Shown here: positions 1,930 to 38,700 of the stretch, in pieces
How positions within the stretch are numbered: the stretch's first letter is position 1
Layout: every line of letters starts with the position of its first letter
NCBI GenBank assembly: GCA_021081985.1
Contig: GCA_021081985.1_3639.1
Source: a phage
Reading direction: 5' to 3' (one strand)
Length of the DNA stretch: 64,000 nucleotides
The notes under the pieces: generated by a model
The model's database searches: none
Told to the model about the DNA's origin: nothing
The model's input: only the letters and a program-made list of their open reading frames with translations
Made by a program: the position numbers and the translations under genes

Positions 1930-4653
1930 TTACAATGCACAACTCTCGCAGTACGGATCTTCAACTGAACTATCTGCAATCAAAGGATAGTTCTTTTTAG
2001 TTTCTTCCTCAGCTTGTTTCTTCGCGTGAAGTTCCGCTGTCAAGGAATCACCAGCACCAACCTTAGAATTTAGATAGTACCACGTTTTCATACCCACTTT
2101 TGTTGCTTTGATAAGATATCCTAACTGCTCTTTCATAGAAATCTTACCATCTTTTTGTTTGGTGTAATCAAGGTAGAGATCTGCACTGATCGCCTGCCCA
2201 GTAAATTTCTGGAACAGGGCATAAATATCTATCAGATCATTTGTTGGTGTATCCCAAGCAGATGTGTAGTAATCTTTTAATTTTTCATAATCAGGAACGA
2301 TAAAAAGAACCTGACCTTGAGGTGATTTTTTAAAGATTACATGATCACGAACAGGGTATATACCGTTTGTTGTGTTTGTTGCCAAAGACGAACTTTCGTT
2401 CGGCATGTAGGCTTCCAACACACTGTTTCTGATCCCGCCAAAATCAACAATCTCCTTGCGTAAGGACTCCCAATCCTGTTTGAGTGTAGGATCCTTCACC
2501 ACACTATCAATCGTTTTGTTGTAAGTATCAATCGGTAGCCAGCCAGATGGGTATTTTGTTTTACCAATCCACTCACAAACACCACGTTCTTTAGCTAACC
2601 GTAGACTTGCCTTATGAAGGCTGTAGCTGTGCAATTCAGCTAAATCATGTACCAACTGTTTGCTCTCAGGAGAACCATAAGGAACTCTATGTGTCGCAAT
2701 ATAATGCGCCACGTTTGTGATGCCAACACCAATAGACCTACGTTTTTTAACTGTACTCTCCATATTTTCATACGGATAGGTCATGATATCCATCACGTTG
2801 TCAATCATGAGTACGGTATAGTATGCCACATCTTCATACTCTTCTTGTTTAACTCTGCCAGCAACCAACGATGCTAGGAAGCATAAAGCAACTTCACCAT
2901 CTTCAGCATCATGCTCGAAAATGTTACGCATGTCTGAATAGCCTTTTGTTGGAAGAGATATTTCTTGGCACTGCCCAGTTAGCAAGCCATTAAACACTCC
3001 CATATGGCGTTTTGGCTCAGAAAAACAGTAGGTGTCGTCAATACGCCCATGGTCTCTGATCTCAACAACAACTTCTTTTTGTCTGGCTACCGTGTTTTGG
3101 TCTGGCAAGTTTAATTCAATAAGCTGATCCCCAACTTTTAAATCACAAGCCATTTTCTCCAACGGGTTATCTTGTAAATAAAACCTGTGATAGGGGGTAC
3201 AAGTAAGCTCTTTACCTGTACTCGTCACTACAGTAATGAGTTTCCTATTACTACCTGTTTTTCTGACAATAACCTCTGACCACTCTTCTCCATTCCACAC
3301 CTCAACAATACGATCTTTAAGGTCGGAAATGGTTTGATACCCATCCTTAGTGAGAATTTTCGTTTCTGGCGCAACACACAAATTGCTTGAATAAATAATT
3401 TCCTTAAATGGGGTGTGTCTATTCATCTCGTCAGTCCAGTAAACATAAAGTCTACCAGTTTCTGTACGCTGGGTAATTATCTCCATTGCCAAATCTCTTG
3501 CCTTAATCCAAGTTTTTGGAATAGAAGCATCCTTGGCAATCTTATCAACTTCAGAGTCAAACTCCTCCATTGTCATAGTGAACATCCCATCATGGAGTTG
3601 TGGGGCATCTTTATAAGATACCAGCATCCAATCTAGGTTTTTCGCAACACGATTGACAAAAGATTTGTTAATACCAACGGAATAATCCATTGTGTTAATT
3701 CGCTTAGATGTCACAGTCATAGGGTTACGTAAGCGAATTAATTCATCAATTTGTGGATCAAGAGCTAAGAAAGAAACTGTTGCTGAACCACCTCTGGACT
3801 GTTGCCTATTTTCTTTTACCCCAGCATCAATACCACGATAATAAGGTAGTTTACCCATATGCTTGATTGTGTTTCCTCTAACACCATCACCAATAGAGCG
3901 AGATGCTAGATAATAACCGATACCAGCTTGATTAACAGTCATCGTATATGCAACTTCTCGTGCAACACCGATGGACTTAGCTGTATCGTCTGCCTTAATT
4001 ACACAACACGAAGCATATCCTGTTTTCCCGGTACGAAGCCCGTTAAGGTATGGTGTCGGGGCGTTGATCTTAAGATCAGACAAATATGTGTACAATTTTG
4101 TCACATCTTTAATACGACGAGCCTTGGGCATATTCTTCATAACTGCCATTGCCATCCCCATAAACATCATCTGCGGGGATTCAAAAAGGATGTCATTAAC
4201 AGCGTCCTTAATACCGTACTTATCACGGAACTGTTTCAATACAGCATACCCATAAGACAGATCTTTACTATGGTCGATAACAGCTTCTAATGCTGTTAAC
4301 TCCAAGCCTGTGTATTTCATATCTTCCCAATAGCCTGAATCAACCATACGGTGATAGAAATTTGGCAAACTTGGGATTTTTGTGAACCCACCAAAGGCTT
4401 CTTTATAAATCTGCCCGACTAAAACTCTACCAGCCATCCGTGCATGTGCTTCATCTTTACGGCTAATACATGCATCTATAATAGCTTGGTTCACTTCTTT
4501 GGTTGTGCAACCATCATATAGTCTTTTATATGCGTCAAGAGCAATGTGTGACCAGTTGCCGTTGCCATCATCACCAAAAATGGCAGCTTTGTTAAGGCGT
4601 TCAGGGTCGAATACTACCTCTGACCCATCGCTTTTAATAACTTTAGTAATCAA
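1930..4653 (-). CDS. nrdA: ribonucleotide reductase large subunit NrdA, interrupted by a mini-intein
   Basis: 907 aa; active-site SSNL-C..QEISLPTK matches the E. coli SNLCLEIALPT region once residues 426-561 are removed; remaining extein about 770 aa. Confidence 0.85.
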   Translation of the reverse strand: MITKVIKSDGSEVVFDPERLNKAAIFGDDGNGNWSHIALDAYKRLYDGCTTKEVNQAIIDACISRKDEAHARMAGRVLVGQIYKEAFGGFTKIPSLPNFYHRMVDSGYWEDMKYTGLELTALEAVIDHSKDLSYGYAVLKQFRDKYGIKDAVNDILFESPQMMFMGMAMAVMKNMPKARRIKDVTKLYTYLSDLKINAPTPYLNGLRTGKTGYASCCVIKADDTAKSIGVAREVAYTMTVNQAGIGYYLASRSIGDGVRGNTIKHMGKLPYYRGIDAGVKENRQQSRGGSATVSFLALDPQIDELIRLRNPMTVTSKRINTMDYSVGINKSFVNRVAKNLDWMLVSYKDAPQLHDGMFTMTMEEFDSEVDKIAKDASIPKTWIKARDLAMEIITQRTETGRLYVYWTDEMNRHTPFKEIIYSSNLCVAPETKILTKDGYQTISDLKDRIVEVWNGEEWSEVIVRKTGSNRKLITVVTSTGKELTCTPYHRFYLQDNPLEKMACDLKVGDQLIELNLPDQNTVARQKEVVVEIRDHGRIDDTYCFSEPKRHMGVFNGLLTGQCQEISLPTKGYSDMRNIFEHDAEDGEVALCFLASLVAGRVKQEEYEDVAYYTVLMIDNVMDIMTYPYENMESTVKKRRSIGVGITNVAHYIATHRVPYGSPESKQLVHDLAELHSYSLHKASLRLAKERGVCEWIGKTKYPSGWLPIDTYNKTIDSVVKDPTLKQDWESLRKEIVDFGGIRNSVLEAYMPNESSSLATNTTNGIYPVRDHVIFKKSPQGQVLFIVPDYEKLKDYYTSAWDTPTNDLIDIYALFQKFTGQAISADLYLDYTKQKDGKISMKEQLGYLIKATKVGMKTWYYLNSKVGAGDSLTAELHAKKQAEEETKKNYPLIADSSVEDPYCESCAL
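2971..3378 (-). mobile_element. mini-intein in nrdA (about 136 aa, no endonuclease domain, C-terminal Gln)
   Basis: Insert starts CVAPETKILT (block A-like), has LTCTPYHRF (TxxH block B-like) and DTYCFSEPKRHMGVFNGLLTGQ followed by +1 Cys; Cys codon at 3378-3376 checked. Confidence 0.6.
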
Positions 4654-5430: not shown

Positions 5431-5459
5431 ATAATATGTATTTTTATTAAATTTGTCAA
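5431..5459 (-). promoter_or_regulatory. sigma70-like promoter (TTGACA-17-TATTAT) on minus strand
   Basis: Minus-strand reading TTGACAaatttaataaaaatacaTATTAT; -35 overlaps the stop of the upstream gene. Confidence 0.45.
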
Positions 5460-7342
5460 CCTGCCACAACATTGTTGGGAACTAGTTGGCGGTATTGTAC
5501 CCACCCACGTAGATTTCCTGACCACATATTTCCTTTTCTATCCATATGCGTCACACCGTCACTTGCCTGTCCATCCCACCACAATGAAGCCTCATTCTCC
5601 AACATAGGTGTTGCAACATGCTCAAAAGGAGATGCGTGTACCTTATCACCACTTGTTAGCTTTTTATAGATATCAAGGGCTTTATCCTTAGTGTTGTTAA
5701 GCACGCGATACGAGACTTGTGCACAACAAGACACAGAAATAGCAATTGCCTCATCAACACGTAGCATCACAGGCTCGTTGTTCTCATCTAAAACACAATA
5801 CCCATGAAATTCTCCAACATCCTCACCAACATCAACTGTGTAGAGGTGCTCTACATATGGGGTGTGCCACTGACCAGGTTCTAATAGCTCAGGTACAGAC
5901 TCATCCACAGCTTGTTTCATGAGAGATGCTAGTTTATGGATCGTCGGGTCTGCATCTCCATCTGCACGAAGATGGAAAAAATTATTCCAATCCGTAGCAG
6001 TAACAACAGTTTTCATCCTCTGGAACGGTTCCAGTAAGCGATTTGCCACCTGCTTGTGATAGCCAGCTTGTGAGTATGCTTCGGCAAAACGTGATGCACT
6101 TAAAGCCGCCAATTGCCACCAATCCTCTGGGGAATATCCAGCATCTATTTCAGCATTGTGATTACCATCATCTTGCATACCAGGTTTATTCTTACCAAAT
6201 TGAACAGGCATGGCAGGATTTTTTCGTACTTGCTCAATCATCTTAGAGATTGGAATTGCTCTGCTGCTCATAGCATTCCTGCTAAACAGTCTATGCGTCA
6301 TAAGTTCACAGTTCCCACTGATAAATACGACACCTTCCCTTCGAACAACCACGTAGGAGGTGTCTACACTTACACAATACACCTTCCCTACATAGTCCTC
6401 ATACTCGAAGATATCTTTATCCTGCCTTAGACTAATGTAGTTCGTAACTTTAAATGAGCATTTATACAGAGAGCCATACTTACGAATATTCACAGAGTCA
6501 CCATTCAGGTGAGCTAACACCTGAATTTGGTTAATCAGTGTTTTGGATGTGGTGTTATACTCCATGTTGTCAATATTGCCGTCTGAGAGTAGCAATGCTC
6601 TCTTAAATAAGCGGTACTGCTCCTTATTTAACCCTCTGATATATTTTGGTAATTTTTTCTCCCCTTCTCCAGTGTAACATGCTTCTGTTAATGGGTTTTT
6701 ATTAAAACTGATAACTATATCGTCCCCATATATAGAGGTGCTATATTCGTATCCACACTCTTCAAGGATACGTGTAACTTCCTGTACCTTCCGAGACTTT
6801 TTAAAATGGAAGTTTGCCTTATTCCCCTTTTCTGGGGTATGTCCATCAGCAGCAAACCAAACACAAAATTCAATCTCCGCATCAGAAAGGTCACACTTTG
6901 CATTCATTACCCCAGACTGCTCGATACGTAATGTTCCATAGTCTCCTACAAGTTCCTCAGCAAGAATCGTCTTACTTACAAATTTACCCCCAGTAGTCCT
7001 TTTTTTCGTAAGGACTCGATGCTTGTCTGTAACAAGCATGGGGAACTTCTTCTTGTTCAGAGATACCATCCGATGACGACCTTCGTTCTCTATGTGTGCG
7101 GATGGGGTTACAAAGCTAATAGCTCCTGTTGTATCATCATACTGTGCTACCTTAGCATTGAGTGCAAATACTTCCCTGAAAGATCTGAACTCTGGCAATT
7201 CCGAGTTAATCTGACTGAGTATTTCTGTCTTCTCGTCAAAGCAGTGAATAATGCGGGGGTATTCCAACTCAAAAGTGGTAATTCTGATACCTTGTGGGGA
7301 AATACTGTCAGCTACGATATGTACAGAGATCTGATTATTCAT
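5456..7342 (-). CDS. thyX: ThyX-like flavin-dependent thymidylate synthase interrupted by a LAGLIDADG-type intein
   Basis: Extein junction TTFELEYPRIIH/CELMTHRLFSRNAMSSRA resembles the ThyX motif region; ANRLLEPF..TVVTATDWNNFFHLRAD resembles the ThyX R..LP..T..N.R..HF.LRAD segment. N-extein is only 33 aa and there is a long C-terminal extension. Confidence 0.55.
   Translation of the reverse strand: MNNQISVHIVADSISPQGIRITTFELEYPRIIHCFDEKTEILSQINSELPEFRSFREVFALNAKVAQYDDTTGAISFVTPSAHIENEGRHRMVSLNKKKFPMLVTDKHRVLTKKRTTGGKFVSKTILAEELVGDYGTLRIEQSGVMNAKCDLSDAEIEFCVWFAADGHTPEKGNKANFHFKKSRKVQEVTRILEECGYEYSTSIYGDDIVISFNKNPLTEACYTGEGEKKLPKYIRGLNKEQYRLFKRALLLSDGNIDNMEYNTTSKTLINQIQVLAHLNGDSVNIRKYGSLYKCSFKVTNYISLRQDKDIFEYEDYVGKVYCVSVDTSYVVVRREGVVFISGNCELMTHRLFSRNAMSSRAIPISKMIEQVRKNPAMPVQFGKNKPGMQDDGNHNAEIDAGYSPEDWWQLAALSASRFAEAYSQAGYHKQVANRLLEPFQRMKTVVTATDWNNFFHLRADGDADPTIHKLASLMKQAVDESVPELLEPGQWHTPYVEHLYTVDVGEDVGEFHGYCVLDENNEPVMLRVDEAIAISVSCCAQVSYRVLNNTKDKALDIYKKLTSGDKVHASPFEHVATPMLENEASLWWDGQASDGVTHMDRKGNMWSGNLRGWVQYRQLVPNNVVAG
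6311..7243 (-). mobile_element. intein with LAGLIDADG-like endonuclease domain in the thyX-like gene (about 311 aa)
   Basis: Starts CFDEKTEILSQ, ends VYCVSVDTSYVVVRREGVVFISGN followed by +1 Cys; internal VWFAADGH and LLLSDGNID motifs; boundary codons checked at 7243-7241 and 6313-6311. Confidence 0.55.
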
Positions 7343-35050: not shown

Positions 35051-36397
35051 TTGAGTAAAGTATTTGGACCTGCCAGTCCTAAACAAAAAATGATTTTGGA
35101 GAGTAAAGCCCAAATTCTAATAATTGGCGGGGCCGCCGGGTGTTTGTCTAAAGACCACGAGGTGTTGACACCATCTGGCTGGATTAAGATATCAGAATGG
35201 TCAGGACAGGACATTCTGCAATATGATAAAGCCACTGGGGAGGCTAAATTTATCCCTCCTTTAGAGTTTGTTAAACTCCCTTGTGAAAAACTTACAAGAA
35301 TAGAAGGTAATGGTATTTGTCAAGAGCTATCTGACGAACATACTGTGATTTATAAACCAGACTATAAATCACAGCCAAGAACACTTTCTTTTTCTGAAGT
35401 GGCAGAAAGACATAACAACTCTGTTAAAAAAGGTTGGACAGGTAAGTTCATAACTACATTTAACTATGATGGGCCTGGGATAGACATGACAGAAGGGGAA
35501 TTAAGGCTTCAGGTTGCTGTCATGGCTGATGGGAGAGTTGTTAAAGAAGGGAAAGATAATTATACACAGATGCGCTTTGCTAAAAAGCGTAAATATGACC
35601 GCTTAATCGAACTTTGTAAAAAGTTTGGATTAAGATATGAAGATAGAGGATCAAAACCCAGTGAAAGATATACCACTGGGGAACAGTACGAGGTCATTGT
35701 ATGGCCTAAATATCCTGATAAAAAATTTACAGAGAAATACTATCAGTGTTCAAATGAACAACTGGAGATAATACTTGATGAGATTTTTCATTGGGATGGT
35801 TCTTTTTGTAAGCCATATGGCGGTAAAACACATAATAGCTTTACAGGTAGATATTTTACTGCTCATAAGACGAACGCTGATTTTGTTCAGTTTATAGGAT
35901 CTTCTCTTGGTTATAATACCACCATAAGCCATGATACAAGAAGTGGAAAGGACAGTTATACTGTTAATATTATGGCTAGAGGAAAAGGATTAAGGTCACT
36001 GGCTAATAAAGACAGAAAAGCTGAGTTTAAAGAGTTTATACCTACGGATGGGTTTAAATACTGCTTTGTAACACAAACAGGTTTCTTTGTTACCAGACTA
36101 GAAGATTGTGTGGTTGTCACTGGGAATAGTGGAAAATCATATCTCCTACAATTGATGCCGCTTGCTTATGTCGATGACCCGCAGACAGCATGTATAATGT
36201 TTCGTAGGACAACACCTCAATTGACAGGTGCAGGTGGACTTTTTGATACAGCGAAAAGTATTTATTTGCAACTCGATAAGGAATGGAAGCCGAAGTTCAG
36301 GGAGAAAGCTCTGGAAGCAATTTTCCCATCTGGGGCAAAGGTGTTGTGGAGACACATGGAGTATGAGAATAACAAATTAGATCATCAGGGTGAATAG
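35051..36397 (+). CDS. terL: terminase large subunit, 5' exon (ATPase N-terminal part) containing an intein in the Walker A loop
   Basis: TTG start with GGAGG RBS; IIGGAAG/[intein]/SGKSYLLQ reconstitutes a GxxGSGKS P-loop; ORF reaches a stop at 36395-36397, probably intron-derived. Confidence 0.65.
   Translation: MSKVFGPASPKQKMILESKAQILIIGGAAGCLSKDHEVLTPSGWIKISEWSGQDILQYDKATGEAKFIPPLEFVKLPCEKLTRIEGNGICQELSDEHTVIYKPDYKSQPRTLSFSEVAERHNNSVKKGWTGKFITTFNYDGPGIDMTEGELRLQVAVMADGRVVKEGKDNYTQMRFAKKRKYDRLIELCKKFGLRYEDRGSKPSERYTTGEQYEVIVWPKYPDKKFTEKYYQCSNEQLEIILDEIFHWDGSFCKPYGGKTHNSFTGRYFTAHKTNADFVQFIGSSLGYNTTISHDTRSGKDSYTVNIMARGKGLRSLANKDRKAEFKEFIPTDGFKYCFVTQTGFFVTRLEDCVVVTGNSGKSYLLQLMPLAYVDDPQTACIMFRRTTPQLTGAGGLFDTAKSIYLQLDKEWKPKFREKALEAIFPSGAKVLWRHMEYENNKLDHQGE
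35141..36127 (+). mobile_element. intein with LAGLIDADG-like endonuclease domain in terL P-loop (about 329 aa)
   Basis: Starts CLSKDHEVLT (block A-like), ends CVVVTGN followed by +1 Ser; internal LQVAVMADGRVV and ILDEIFHWDGS motifs; boundary codons TGT 35141 and AAT 36125 checked. Confidence 0.6.
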
Positions 36398-37659
36398 CTT
36401 GCCCTTCGTGCCTATAACGGTGGAACTCCCTATGGGAAAATACCGTGCCACAGAATATGGAAATATAAAATCTGGGTGTAACGACTATCTCCGATGAGTG
36501 TAGGAGAGTAGAATCACAAGCGATTGGTGATCCAAACGGCACGCCAAGGATGGAAGATATAGTCTGTTCCACATGGAAACATGTGGCGGGTGTTTTAGCA
36601 CACCGCCTCAGTGTAGCGAACTGAGGGGACAATAAGTTGCAGTATACCTTTATAGGTTTTGATGAGGGTTGGTATTAGCTCTCTTTAAACCTCCCTAATT
36701 GTCGGGGAAACCTTTATTGTTTACATAACCAAGCAAATGTGGTAACATGTTTGTGGCCTACACTAACTATGTAGGGTATGGTAATATCATGTAAAATTAG
36801 GTAATCCGCAGCGAAGCATCCCTATGGGATGAACGTTCAACGACTATCGCTTACGGGCGTTAGGGCCAAGCGGTGAGGGAAACCTCCAGTCTTTCAGACT
36901 GCCGAAATGGGAGGATATTTGCGTAATAATATTAAAAAATGTGTTGACTGCCATAGAGAACTTCCTCTTGATAAATTTTTTCTTTCATCAAAAAGTAGTG
37001 ATGGATATTCTGGAGCTTGTAAAGAATGCTACATGTATTATAGACTTAACAACTCCAGAAAGAATAAGGATATGATTAAGAAAGAGGATGCTGCCATGTT
37101 TATACAAGATTTGGTATCATCTGGTGAACTTTTCGAATGCAAAACTTGCCGTAAGAAGTTTTTAGCTGATAATTTTTATACTAAGAGAGATTATGGTAAA
37201 GTGTATCTTGCAACAAATAGATGTAAAAGATGTGAAAAGTTTTACCAAATAGAGAGAAAGTTTGGCATCTCTGAGGAATATTACTTTTCAATGTTGGAAA
37301 GGCAGGGGTTTAAGTGCGAGATATGTAAAATACCTTTGGAAGATTATAAAAATCAAGGGTATAGAGATTTTTTCTCCGTAGATCATGACCATAAGACAGG
37401 GAAGATTAGAGGTTTGTTATGCGATAAGTGTAACAGGGCTTTGGGATTTTTCGGAGAAAATGAGGAAACACTTTTAAATGCCGCAGAATATATACGCAAA
37501 TATAAGATATAGTCTGGTCTGCATGGTGACATGCAGCAGCACGTAGTGGTGCGGGATAAGAGTAGCGATCTTATCTGAACAAAAACGACACAATTCACAT
37601 GGTCACAGATAGATTATCTGATATCTCGTCTACGTTCAAACTCTAAATATCCGAGCAGG
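36398..37659 (+). mobile_element. putative group I intron in terL carrying an HNH homing-endonuclease ORF (boundaries approximate)
   Basis: 1.26-kb interruption between two terL reading frames; contains aattgtcggggaaacc (P-like, 36667-36682), gggtatggtaata (36774-36786), aatccgcagcg (Q-like, 36803-36813), gttcaacgactat (R-like, 36835-36847) resembling conserved group I core elements recalled from the Tetrahymena and T4 introns. Confidence 0.55.
36907..37512 (+). CDS. HNH (His-Me finger, Endo VII-like) homing endonuclease encoded within the terL intron
   Basis: 201 aa; several CxxC pairs and VDHDHKTGKIRGLLCDKCNRALGFF matching the DHDH...RGLLC..CN motif of T4 endonuclease VII-type nucleases. 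Confidence 0.65.
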   Translation: MGGYLRNNIKKCVDCHRELPLDKFFLSSKSSDGYSGACKECYMYYRLNNSRKNKDMIKKEDAAMFIQDLVSSGELFECKTCRKKFLADNFYTKRDYGKVYLATNRCKRCEKFYQIERKFGISEEYYFSMLERQGFKCEICKIPLEDYKNQGYRDFFSVDHDHKTGKIRGLLCDKCNRALGFFGENEETLLNAAEYIRKYKI

Positions 37660-38700
37660 ATGGTTATCTCTTGTAACCCTGATCCAGATCATAAGATTAA
37701 AGAGTTGATTTCTTGGTATTTAGACGATGAGGGGTATCCTATACCTGAACGTGACGGGGTGATTAGATGGTTTATAAGACGTGACGGGGAGTTTATCTGG
37801 GGTGAATCAGAGCAAGAATTAATTGAAAAGTATTGGGATGGCAAGGATGAGAAAAGAAAGCCTAAACCACTTTCATTTTCCTTCATTTCCGCAACAATAT
37901 TCGATAATCCTCCCATGCTGGAGAATAACCCAGATTATCTAGCATTCCTTGAAGGTCTTCCAGAGGTAGAAAAAGCCCAGTTATTGCATGGAAACTGGAA
38001 CGCAAGACCTGAAGGGGCAAACTATTTCCAGAGATCTTATTTAAAAGAGGTTCCCTGCTTACCTCTCGGTGTTGTATCTGTTCGTCCGTATGATAAAGCA
38101 GGTACAGAAAGAACATCTGGAAACAGATATCCTGACTTTACAGCATCTGTTAAGGTAAGTAAAGACAATGATGGTTTTTACTACTTGTCTGGTGATTATT
38201 GTCCTGAATTTTTTGATGATGGTAGATATTCGACTCAAACGCAGGGAAGATTCTGTAAAAAAGCTGGGGAACGTGATGTTATCATTAAGAAACAGGCTTA
38301 TTTTGATGGTGATGATGTCACCATAATTTTCAGTGTTGACCCAGGACAAGCAGGAATAAGTGAATTTTTAACAAGCTCCCGTGAACTAATAGCGGAAGGG
38401 TTTACAGTAGAAAAAGATCCTACACCAAGCAATAAATCAAAATTAACACGATTCACACCGTTTGCAAAACTTGCTCAAGCAGGTATGGTGAGAATAGTTC
38501 GTGATAGTTTTGATCCTAAAACTTATGAAGCCCTTATGACAGAGCTTGAAAAGTTCAATGGGGAAAGGAGTACTACGACAAGAAAAGACGATTGGGTCGA
38601 CGCCATTTCTTCTGGGATAAATTATCTTGAAAAAGAAGAAATAGTCAAACCTGTTGTTATTCCAAAAATTGTAGCTCCTACCTTGTATAAAAGAATATAA
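37660..38700 (+). CDS. terL: terminase large subunit, 3' exon (Walker B and nuclease domain); true exon start may lie slightly upstream
   Basis: ELISWYLDDEG Walker-B-like (hhhhDDE) soon after start; acidic residues consistent with RNase H-like nuclease domain; track coordinates used. Confidence 0.65.
   Translation: MVISCNPDPDHKIKELISWYLDDEGYPIPERDGVIRWFIRRDGEFIWGESEQELIEKYWDGKDEKRKPKPLSFSFISATIFDNPPMLENNPDYLAFLEGLPEVEKAQLLHGNWNARPEGANYFQRSYLKEVPCLPLGVVSVRPYDKAGTERTSGNRYPDFTASVKVSKDNDGFYYLSGDYCPEFFDDGRYSTQTQGRFCKKAGERDVIIKKQAYFDGDDVTIIFSVDPGQAGISEFLTSSRELIAEGFTVEKDPTPSNKSKLTRFTPFAKLAQAGMVRIVRDSFDPKTYEALMTELEKFNGERSTTTRKDDWVDAISSGINYLEKEEIVKPVVIPKIVAPTLYKRI

Follow-up and report, generated by a model that had tools for sequence, protein, structure and literature searches.

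What occupies the middle of the P-loop of a phage terminase, and what becomes of it? The question is raised by terL, the gene for the terminase large subunit (TerL), in a stretch of 64,000 nucleotides (nt) of phage DNA (NCBI GenBank assembly GCA_021081985.1, contig GCA_021081985.1_3639.1; hereafter, the window) that derives from an Avunavirus (Vequintavirinae) coliphage with Escherichia coli as its host. Here, an open reading frame (ORF) at 35051-36397 on the plus strand starts with TTG and translates as MSKVFGPASPKQKMILESKAQILIIGGAAG↓CLSKDHEVLTP...LEDCVVVTGN↓SGKSYLLQLMPL... (arrows mark element boundaries throughout). An initial annotation, made from the letters of the window, had read the segment between the arrows, 35141-36127, as an intein inserted in the terminase Walker A loop, and this is borne out by colinearity with uninterrupted homologs, by the spread of the same segment through other protein families, by a link to the intein in PDB entry 6ZGQ, and by the predicted fold. 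On sequence and model evidence we are highly confident that the segment is a splicing-competent bipartite intein, that is, a HINT domain with a nested LAGLIDADG homing endonuclease, seated in the Walker A motif of TerL. The same annotation had counted one downstream intron, and thus two selfish elements in the gene; terL in fact holds three (one intein and two group I introns), each adjoining an ATPase motif (Table 1).

Exact interruption of the TerL P-loop

The insert runs precisely from the codon of Cys1 (TGT) through that of Asn329 (AAT). Deleting it, which removes residues 31-359 of the translation, fuses GGAAG to SGKS and gives the P-loop that the initial annotation had described; the Walker A loop then reads GGAAGSGKS, the insertion lies between Gly30 and Ser31 in mature numbering, and the predicted junction peptide is AQILIIGGAAGSGK. 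For the comparisons below, the predicted mature TerL is the translation after in silico removal of the insert and of the downstream non-coding gaps, a protein of 499 amino acids (aa). Once spliced in this way, TerL regains the Pfam domain Terminase_6N (positions 1-213 of 215, E 1.3e-24), a match that is absent in Pfam from the unprocessed N-terminal terL ORF.

The first 272 residues of the spliced protein have tblastn matches in 1307 records of the phage collection, 1264 of them with at least 80% query coverage. Its nearest intein-free relatives, the TerLs of Salmonella phage KE22 (83.8% at the aa level) and Klebsiella phage KNP2 (82%), align as one unbroken piece, and the same single match across the junction was found in each TerL sampled (KE22, KNP2, UPEC06, EM, and wV8). 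Residue by residue, the insertion site reads GGAAGSGKSYLLQ in KE22 and UPEC06 and GGAAGAGKS/T in Pseudomonas phage EM and in wV8, and the N-extein lines up with the N-terminal ends of TerLs that lack the insert. On the DNA side, a query of 691 nt stripped of all three elements gives a single-piece colinear match in approximately 91 genomes at approximately 74% identity (e.g., 4MG, PVPSE1, and KE22). Because of these one-piece matches, the residue alignment, the regained Terminase_6N domain, and the DNA colinearity, we conclude that homologous TerLs do not carry the segment as a normal domain; the sampled homologs are uninterrupted at the junction, an outcome that speaks for the initial annotation.

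An insert at the same point, by residue-level alignment, is found in the TerL of phage Av-05. In the cultured phages Av-05, TH18, and 24-2-1 the insert lies in the only terL seen, and a search of the window revealed no second terL copy.

Table 1. Positions of the terL components and of the ThyX intein in the window
Feature	Position	Strand	Size	Details
terL N-extein	35051-35140	+	30 codons	Starts with TTG; last residues ...IIGGAAG (Walker A, first half); from ORF list and translation
terL exon 1, including intein	35051-36391	+
Predicted intein	35141-36127	+	329 aa	Cys1 to Asn329
N-terminal splicing (HINT) half	35141-35473	+	aa 1-111	Block A Cys1; block B Ser64-Asp-Glu-His67, Val69 at B:12
Predicted LAGLIDADG homing-endonuclease domain	35474-36016	+	aa 112-292	Motif helices ending Asp130-Gly131 and Asp219-Gly220
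C-terminal splicing half	36017-36127	+	aa 293-329	Block F Tyr307-Cys308-Phe309 (F:4 Cys); block G Thr327-Gly328-Asn329
C-extein part of terL exon 1	36128-36391	+		Begins at Ser+1 (SGKSYLLQ..., second half of Walker A); final base U before intron 1
Group I intron 1	36392-36636	+	245 nt	No ORF; contains the in-frame stop of the ORF at 36395-36397
terL exon 2 (micro-exon)	36637-36669	+	33 nt, 11 codons	LQYTFIGFDEG (Walker B)
Group I intron 2	36670-37587	+	918 nt	Carries a homing-endonuclease ORF
HNH/Endonuclease VII-type ORF of intron 2	36907-37512	+	201 aa	Pfam Endonuclease_7, E 4.7e-20; PHROG endonuclease VII families, E down to 8e-33
terL exon 3	37588-38700	+		Rest of the ATPase domain and nuclease domain; Terminase_6N, Terminase_6C; phrog_979, E 1e-140
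Second predicted intein, same family, in ThyX-type thymidylate synthase	6311-7243	-	311 aa	Inside ORF 5456-7342

Intein family, fold, and splicing class

The segment is by no means confined to terminases. An exhaustive search with a profile of its family returned 13,060 cluster representatives at E ≤ 1e-3, of which 1,627 reached E ≤ 1e-30. Phage primase-helicases contain matches to all 329 aa (100% coverage; 43% identity and E 5e-74 in KIL1); other hosts of full-length copies are RtcB ligases, RecD/ExoV-like helicases, and PhoH-like ATPases, PHROG matches fall within the interior of the "PhoH-like" and "ribonucleotide reductase" families, and metagenomic hosts include TerL, toprim-primase, DnaB/KaiC-like, DnaC-like, and methyltransferase-like proteins. 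The junctions are GGAAG↓C and TGN↓SGKS in TerL, GSASG↓C and TGN↓TGKST in the primase-helicases, NAGAG↓C and TGN↓CGKT in RecD/ExoV, G.AG↓C and TGN↓CGKT or TSKT in PhoH, and VGVDIG↓C and TGN↓CGM in RtcB.

We surveyed the residues of 178 full-length copies. Cys1, the block-F Cys (position F:4), and the terminal Asn are present in every one, the +1 position holds Ser (93 copies), Cys (71), or Thr (14), and the penultimate residue is Gly in 176, including the window copy (Gly328), rather than the canonical His. Of the 178, 160 sit at one and the same point of Walker A (G↓xGK[ST] or G↓xGxGK[ST]). In the family alignments (A2/A3) the invariant columns are C1, W14, H67, Y307-C308-F309, R319, and T327-G328-N329; the His of block B is thus invariant, and Ser rather than Thr is the usual residue of the lineage at B:7. 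The terminal blocks, which the initial annotation had called intein-like, are atypical (Ser-x-x-His, Cys at F:4, and Thr-Gly-Asn).

A search of the PDB with the single window sequence gave only a marginal match to 6ZGQ (E 0.35). When the family profile was used, the match to this structure, the AceL NrdHF-1-1 intein (Hoffmann et al. 2020, PMC7891396), reached E 5.4e-9, and alignment of a mini-intein allele placed YCF...T on HAL...T of the crystallized C124A construct. At a single numbering offset throughout, Cys308 corresponds to Cys124, Thr327 to Thr144, and Asn329 to Asn146, and the Asn/+1 Ser junction accordingly aligns with intein block G, a point on which the initial annotation had staked its reading. 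AlphaFold (AF2) gave an unusable model from the single sequence (predicted local distance difference test score 38), and the model used here was built from an alignment of 25 sequences (score 92.4; predicted template modeling score 0.90). This model has a HINT fold, and its superposition with the AceL NrdHF intein, the nearest structural relative of the window intein, covers 142 of 154 residues at 2.0 Å. Its best structural matches are true inteins (Z 17-22.8), and Foldseek agrees (E 4e-15). The two inteins are nevertheless different: AceL NrdHF begins with Ala1, is a proven class 3 intein, and is naturally split, in a ribonucleotide reductase gene with a free-standing GIY-YIG endonuclease, whereas that of the window starts with Cys1, is contiguous, has a LAGLIDADG domain nested within it, and sits in a P-loop. 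Compared with the class 1 inteins with an endonuclease PI-SceI, PI-PfuI, PI-PkoII, and TliVMA, identity to the window intein is only 11-15%, and those are larger (366-537 residues, as solved chains).

The fold also bears on whether the insert might be a bacterial intein-like (BIL) or Hedgehog-type autoprocessing domain, which would cleave its flanks without ligating them. We regard this as extremely improbable. BIL domains are without a +1 nucleophile (PMC4031507), and here Ser, Cys, or Thr occupies that position in all 178 copies; a LAGLIDADG endonuclease is nested in the insert, the flanks rebuild an essential motif exactly, and the structural matches to true inteins score far higher.

In the pathway that we propose, the terL transcript would first lose its two group I introns, and translation would then yield an 828-aa precursor made of a 30-aa N-extein, the 329-aa intein, and a 469-aa C-extein, which should be unable to bind ATP because its P-loop is split. 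A thioester would form at the Gly30-Cys1 bond through Cys1 and/or the invariant Cys308, helped by Ser64 and His67. The N-extein would be passed to Ser+1, cyclization of Asn329 would free the intein, and an O-to-N shift would leave the 499-aa TerL with its GGAAGSGKS loop whole. If its endonuclease is active, the freed intein could cut the P-loop coding sequence of an intein-free terL, near GGCGGGGCCGCCGGG↓AGTGGAAAATCA, in a mixed infection, and repair would copy the intein in. Splicing itself, the choice of initiating cysteine, and cutting by the endonuclease are all things that we infer from the sequence and the model.

Which cysteine would begin the reaction? Class 3 inteins are defined by the lack of a nucleophile at residue 1 together with the WCT triplet, Trp at B:12, Cys at F:4, and Thr at G:5 (PMC2807308, PMC7891396). 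In the window intein residue 1 is an invariant Cys, and of the triplet Cys308 (F:4) and Thr327 (G:5) are present, with Val69 at B:12; Trp does not occur there in any of the 178 copies. Because Cys1 is invariant and Trp is absent, the intein does not formally qualify as class 3. Judged by its residues, with a nucleophile at position 1 and with Cys1, His67, Asn329, and Ser+1 all present, it is by formal definition class 1.

Formal class and chemistry could still part ways. In the same intein, Cys308 might attack the scissile bond at the N-terminus and form a branched thioester that is resolved to Ser+1, as in class 3, with Cys1 dispensable or otherwise used. AceL NrdHF, which splices by that route, has the same unusual set of features as the window intein (PMC7891396): Ser at B:7, likewise no Trp at B:12, Cys at F:4 and Thr at G:5, and a penultimate residue that is not His. 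Its Cys124 and Thr144 are in register with Cys308 and Thr327, and the F:4 Cys is never missing from the survey. The same is true of Cys1, however, which would be unexpected of a dispensable residue, and the definition itself demands that residue 1 not be a nucleophile (PMC2807308, PMC7891396). Moreover, Cys at F:4 is not diagnostic on its own, being the second commonest residue there among inteins overall, after Asp (PMC4031507), and the Trp of the triplet is absent. We therefore consider the class 3 route a minority prospect, and initiation by Cys1 the likelier course, although by no means a certain one; a mechanism that needs both cysteines takes up the small share that is left. Since Cys is second commonest at F:4 and splicing without the penultimate His is documented, the splicing signature is unusual rather than unprecedented.

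There is also a slim chance that this P-loop lineage splices by a mechanism not yet described, for example a thioester relay from Cys1 to the F:4 Cys to the +1 residue, or a reversible disulfide between Cys1 and Cys308. It may apply because two active-site cysteines are invariant, the Thr at G:5 is of the class 3 type, the penultimate His is missing, and the nearest solved relative is class 3. Should the disulfide variant be true, activation of the terminase, helicase, PhoH, and other host proteins would be tied to the redox state of the infected cell.

The question of splicing class belongs to the whole lineage and not to the terL locus alone, and the window itself holds a second member, in the ThyX-type thymidylate synthase (Table 1). 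Its junctions are YPRIIH↓CFDEKTEIL...VYCVSVDTSYVVVRREGVVFISGN↓CELMTHRLFSRNAMSSR, the family profile covers its whole length (by hhalign, 99.3% probability and E 4.5e-20), and the spliced host protein regains the Pfam domain Thy1 (E 5.6e-10). With the TerL intein it has in common Cys1 and the F:4 Cys; it ends in Ser-Gly-Asn and is followed by Cys at +1. An E. coli phage with two such inteins offers a convenient genetic system for the question of mechanism, and the terL intein in particular an E. coli-based system for a P-loop intein of ambiguous splicing class.

The nearest copy outside TerL deserves a separate remark. In phage KIL1, the primase/helicase coding sequence (CDS; NC_030934, 55002-57803) is annotated as a two-piece join, and its depositors may have treated the intein like an intron and removed it from the DNA.

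Endonuclease domain and alleles at the TerL site

The initial annotation's two LAGLIDADG-like motifs are present, as LRLQVAVMAD130G and LEIILDEIFHWD219G. In the model, their helices (118-130 and 205-218) finish at Asp130 and Asp219, and the predicted structure shows the two-motif alpha-beta-beta-alpha-beta-beta-alpha pseudo-dimer fold with acidic helix ends. LAGLIDADG_3 is significant in 6 of 25 relatives (best E 5.7e-7).

The TerL site is found in several states. Full-length alleles of 323-331 aa occur beside alleles with a half-deleted endonuclease (Av-05 and P0013, 241 aa; P0016, at 240 aa and with 432 sequences in its cluster), mini-inteins (152 aa in P0018 and 156 aa in P0036), which we used to set the boundary between HINT and endonuclease domains, and empty sites; at every stage both intein termini are kept exactly. 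One site thus displays the homing cycle in its full, half-decayed, mini, and empty alleles.

We also compared codons between the window and the 98%-identical phage 24-2-1, a comparison in which the counts are small and only suggestive. The splicing domain has six synonymous and no non-synonymous changes, the endonuclease domain three and four, and the exteins 15 and one, respectively. These counts suggest an intein fixed in the genus, whose splicing would still be essential while its endonuclease drifts. As to the endonuclease of the window intein, we give equal weight to its being active and to its being inactive.

Several observations weigh against reading the segment as a functional intein and should be set out together. 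Gly stands in for the canonical penultimate His, as does Ser for Thr in block B. The window copy has no match to Pfam Hint or Intein_splicing or to NCBIfam intein_Nterm or intein_Cterm at E ≤ 1, and LAGLIDADG_3 scores only 14.1 bits in it, against a Pfam cut-off of 22.5. The endonuclease domain shows signs of relaxed constraint. Finally, a search for a near-identical terL with an empty site had no success: the intein is present in each of the six Avunavirus records (95-99% identity), and empty sites come no closer than approximately 74% nucleotide identity. Because all six carry it, ongoing homing in Avunavirus is not demonstrated.

How damaging are these points? Both residue deviations are known in functional inteins (PMC7891396, PMC4031507): splicing without the penultimate His is documented in both sources, and Ser at B:7 is functional in AceL NrdHF (PMC7891396). 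As for the profile hidden Markov models (HMMs), the splicing domains of 25 family members give no Pfam or NCBIfam intein or Hint match at E ≤ 0.01, and we take this silence as a sensitivity gap of the models, not as evidence against an intein fold. The initial annotation had looked to Hint and LAGLIDADG profiles for confirmation. That did not come, as Pfam and NCBIfam returned no intein match and only the sub-threshold LAGLIDADG_3; the support is comparative and structural instead.

The silent HMMs, the missing His, and the four non-synonymous against three synonymous changes in the endonuclease domain could also be brought forward for a decayed, splicing-dead intein or a domesticated insertion domain, where TerL would work with the insert in place or terL would be a pseudogene. 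We think this very improbable, if slightly less so than a domain that cleaves without ligating. Such an insert would split the Walker A motif GxxxxGK[ST], which is unbroken in every intein-free homolog. The splicing residues are all intact and invariant in the 178 copies, the splicing domain has accumulated synonymous changes exclusively, and alleles that have lost their endonuclease (Av-05, P0016, P0018, and P0036) retain both termini exactly. In addition, the carrier phages have been cultured and are viable, and there is no second terL in the window to stand in for the first. A splicing-competent intein remains our reading. A stable inserted domain, a BIL/Hedgehog domain limited to cleavage, and a dead intein were each considered and rejected.

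The codon at the +1 position shows a difference of its own. Ser+1 (36128-36130) is encoded by AGT in the intein-bearing allele and by TCA in the intein-free KE22 and UPEC06, and many synonymous differences are bunched directly downstream of it. Co-conversion from a donor could account for this pattern, as could shielding of the occupied site from re-cleavage.

Known systems, annotation, and the introns of terL

Inteins in the P-loop of TerL have precedents. In mycobacteriophages, no protein hosts inteins more often than TerL, where two sites lie in the Walker A loop (TerL1-a and TerL1-b); splicing has been shown for these P-loop inteins, and cleavage of intein-free alleles for two (Kelley et al. 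2016, PMC5050341). The same article states that approximately 70% of bacterial and archaeal inteins lie in ATP-binding proteins. The window intein resembles those of the mycobacteriophages in occupying Walker A of the TerL ATPase, where splicing is needed to rebuild the active site, and in having a LAGLIDADG domain, as they often do. Unlike them, it is known from sequence alone and resides in a coliphage of a Gram-negative host (Avunavirus) with a Terminase_6-type TerL. Its insertion point, G↓SGKS, precedes by three residues the GK↓T site described as "classic" in the mycobacteriophages (PMC5050341), and its lineage differs in having Cys1, Cys at F:4, and Thr-Gly-Asn. The element is best regarded as a genuine, previously unannotated example of a well-known selfish element, and it leaves current concepts unchanged.

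We found no paper connecting Av-05 to an intein. In GenBank, the terL of Avunavirus is divided among two or three CDSs labeled "terminase large subunit," together with an "HNH homing endonuclease," and there are no intein or intron features. It is important to remember that the true product is predicted to be a protein of 499 aa, for which the RNA would be spliced twice and the protein once; phylogenies based on terL, predictions of packaging strategy, and phage engineering will be wrong unless the elements are removed. The family has more than 13,000 cluster representatives, and its splicing domain escapes the standard Pfam and NCBIfam models; phage genomes therefore probably hold more inteins of this lineage than their annotations show.

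A precedent for such crowding comes from the same subfamily, Vequintavirinae: nrdA of Pectobacterium phage CB7 combines a LAGLIDADG intein with an HNH-bearing group I intron in one essential gene (PMC7344957). The host gene in the window differs in being a terminase rather than a ribonucleotide reductase, and in having two introns with an exon of 11 codons between them.

Intron 1 of terL is exactly absent from Av-05, KE22, and approximately 90 other genomes, and intron 2 from phage 24-2-1, KE22, and approximately 90 other genomes; Av-05 has intron 2 at 80% identity. Exon 2 is contiguous with its neighbor on one side in Av-05 and on the other side in 24-2-1. For both introns, U is the last base of the exon before and G the last base of the intron itself; presence or absence and boundaries alike are those of group I introns. 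The exon junctions predicted after intron removal are ...CATCAGGGT↓TTGCAGTAT... and ...GATGAGGGT↓ACACAATTC....

The RNA models are less generous. Against Rfam Intron_gpI (RF00028), with its gathering score of 50, intron 1 has 27-34 bits and the core motifs GUGUAACGACUA and GAAGAUAUAGUC, and intron 2 has 40 bits for its 5' half and 29 bits for its 3' half. Both introns therefore stay below the gathering score (27-40 bits overall, E 1.9e-8 to 1.3e-4), with their core motifs aligned.

Base composition differs among the elements. The GC content of the intein is 0.369, compared with 0.43 in the neighboring terL exon segments and a window mean of 0.396; that of intron 1 is higher (0.473), and that of the HNH ORF in intron 2 much lower (0.328). 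These differences are compatible with foreign origins of the elements. Taken as a whole, the locus illustrates how homing elements stack on the most conserved motifs of the motor, here Walker A and both edges of Walker B.

Phage 24-2-1 goes a step further and has a third terL intron (3582-4563 in the 24-2-1 sequence) with a different HNH ORF; the equivalent site in the window, between 37898 and 37899, is empty. At the 3' end of this third intron, a stretch of 50 nt is 96% identical to the 3' end of intron 2 in the window (37506-37555).

The 3' end of intron 2 (37503-37588, approximately 85 nt) also resembles, at approximately 82% identity, stretches that carry no annotation in many phiKZ-like jumbo phages of Pseudomonas, which suggests, from the sequence similarity, that related group I introns lie unannotated in those genomes. 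Campylobacter phages are likewise among the records that match this 3' end.

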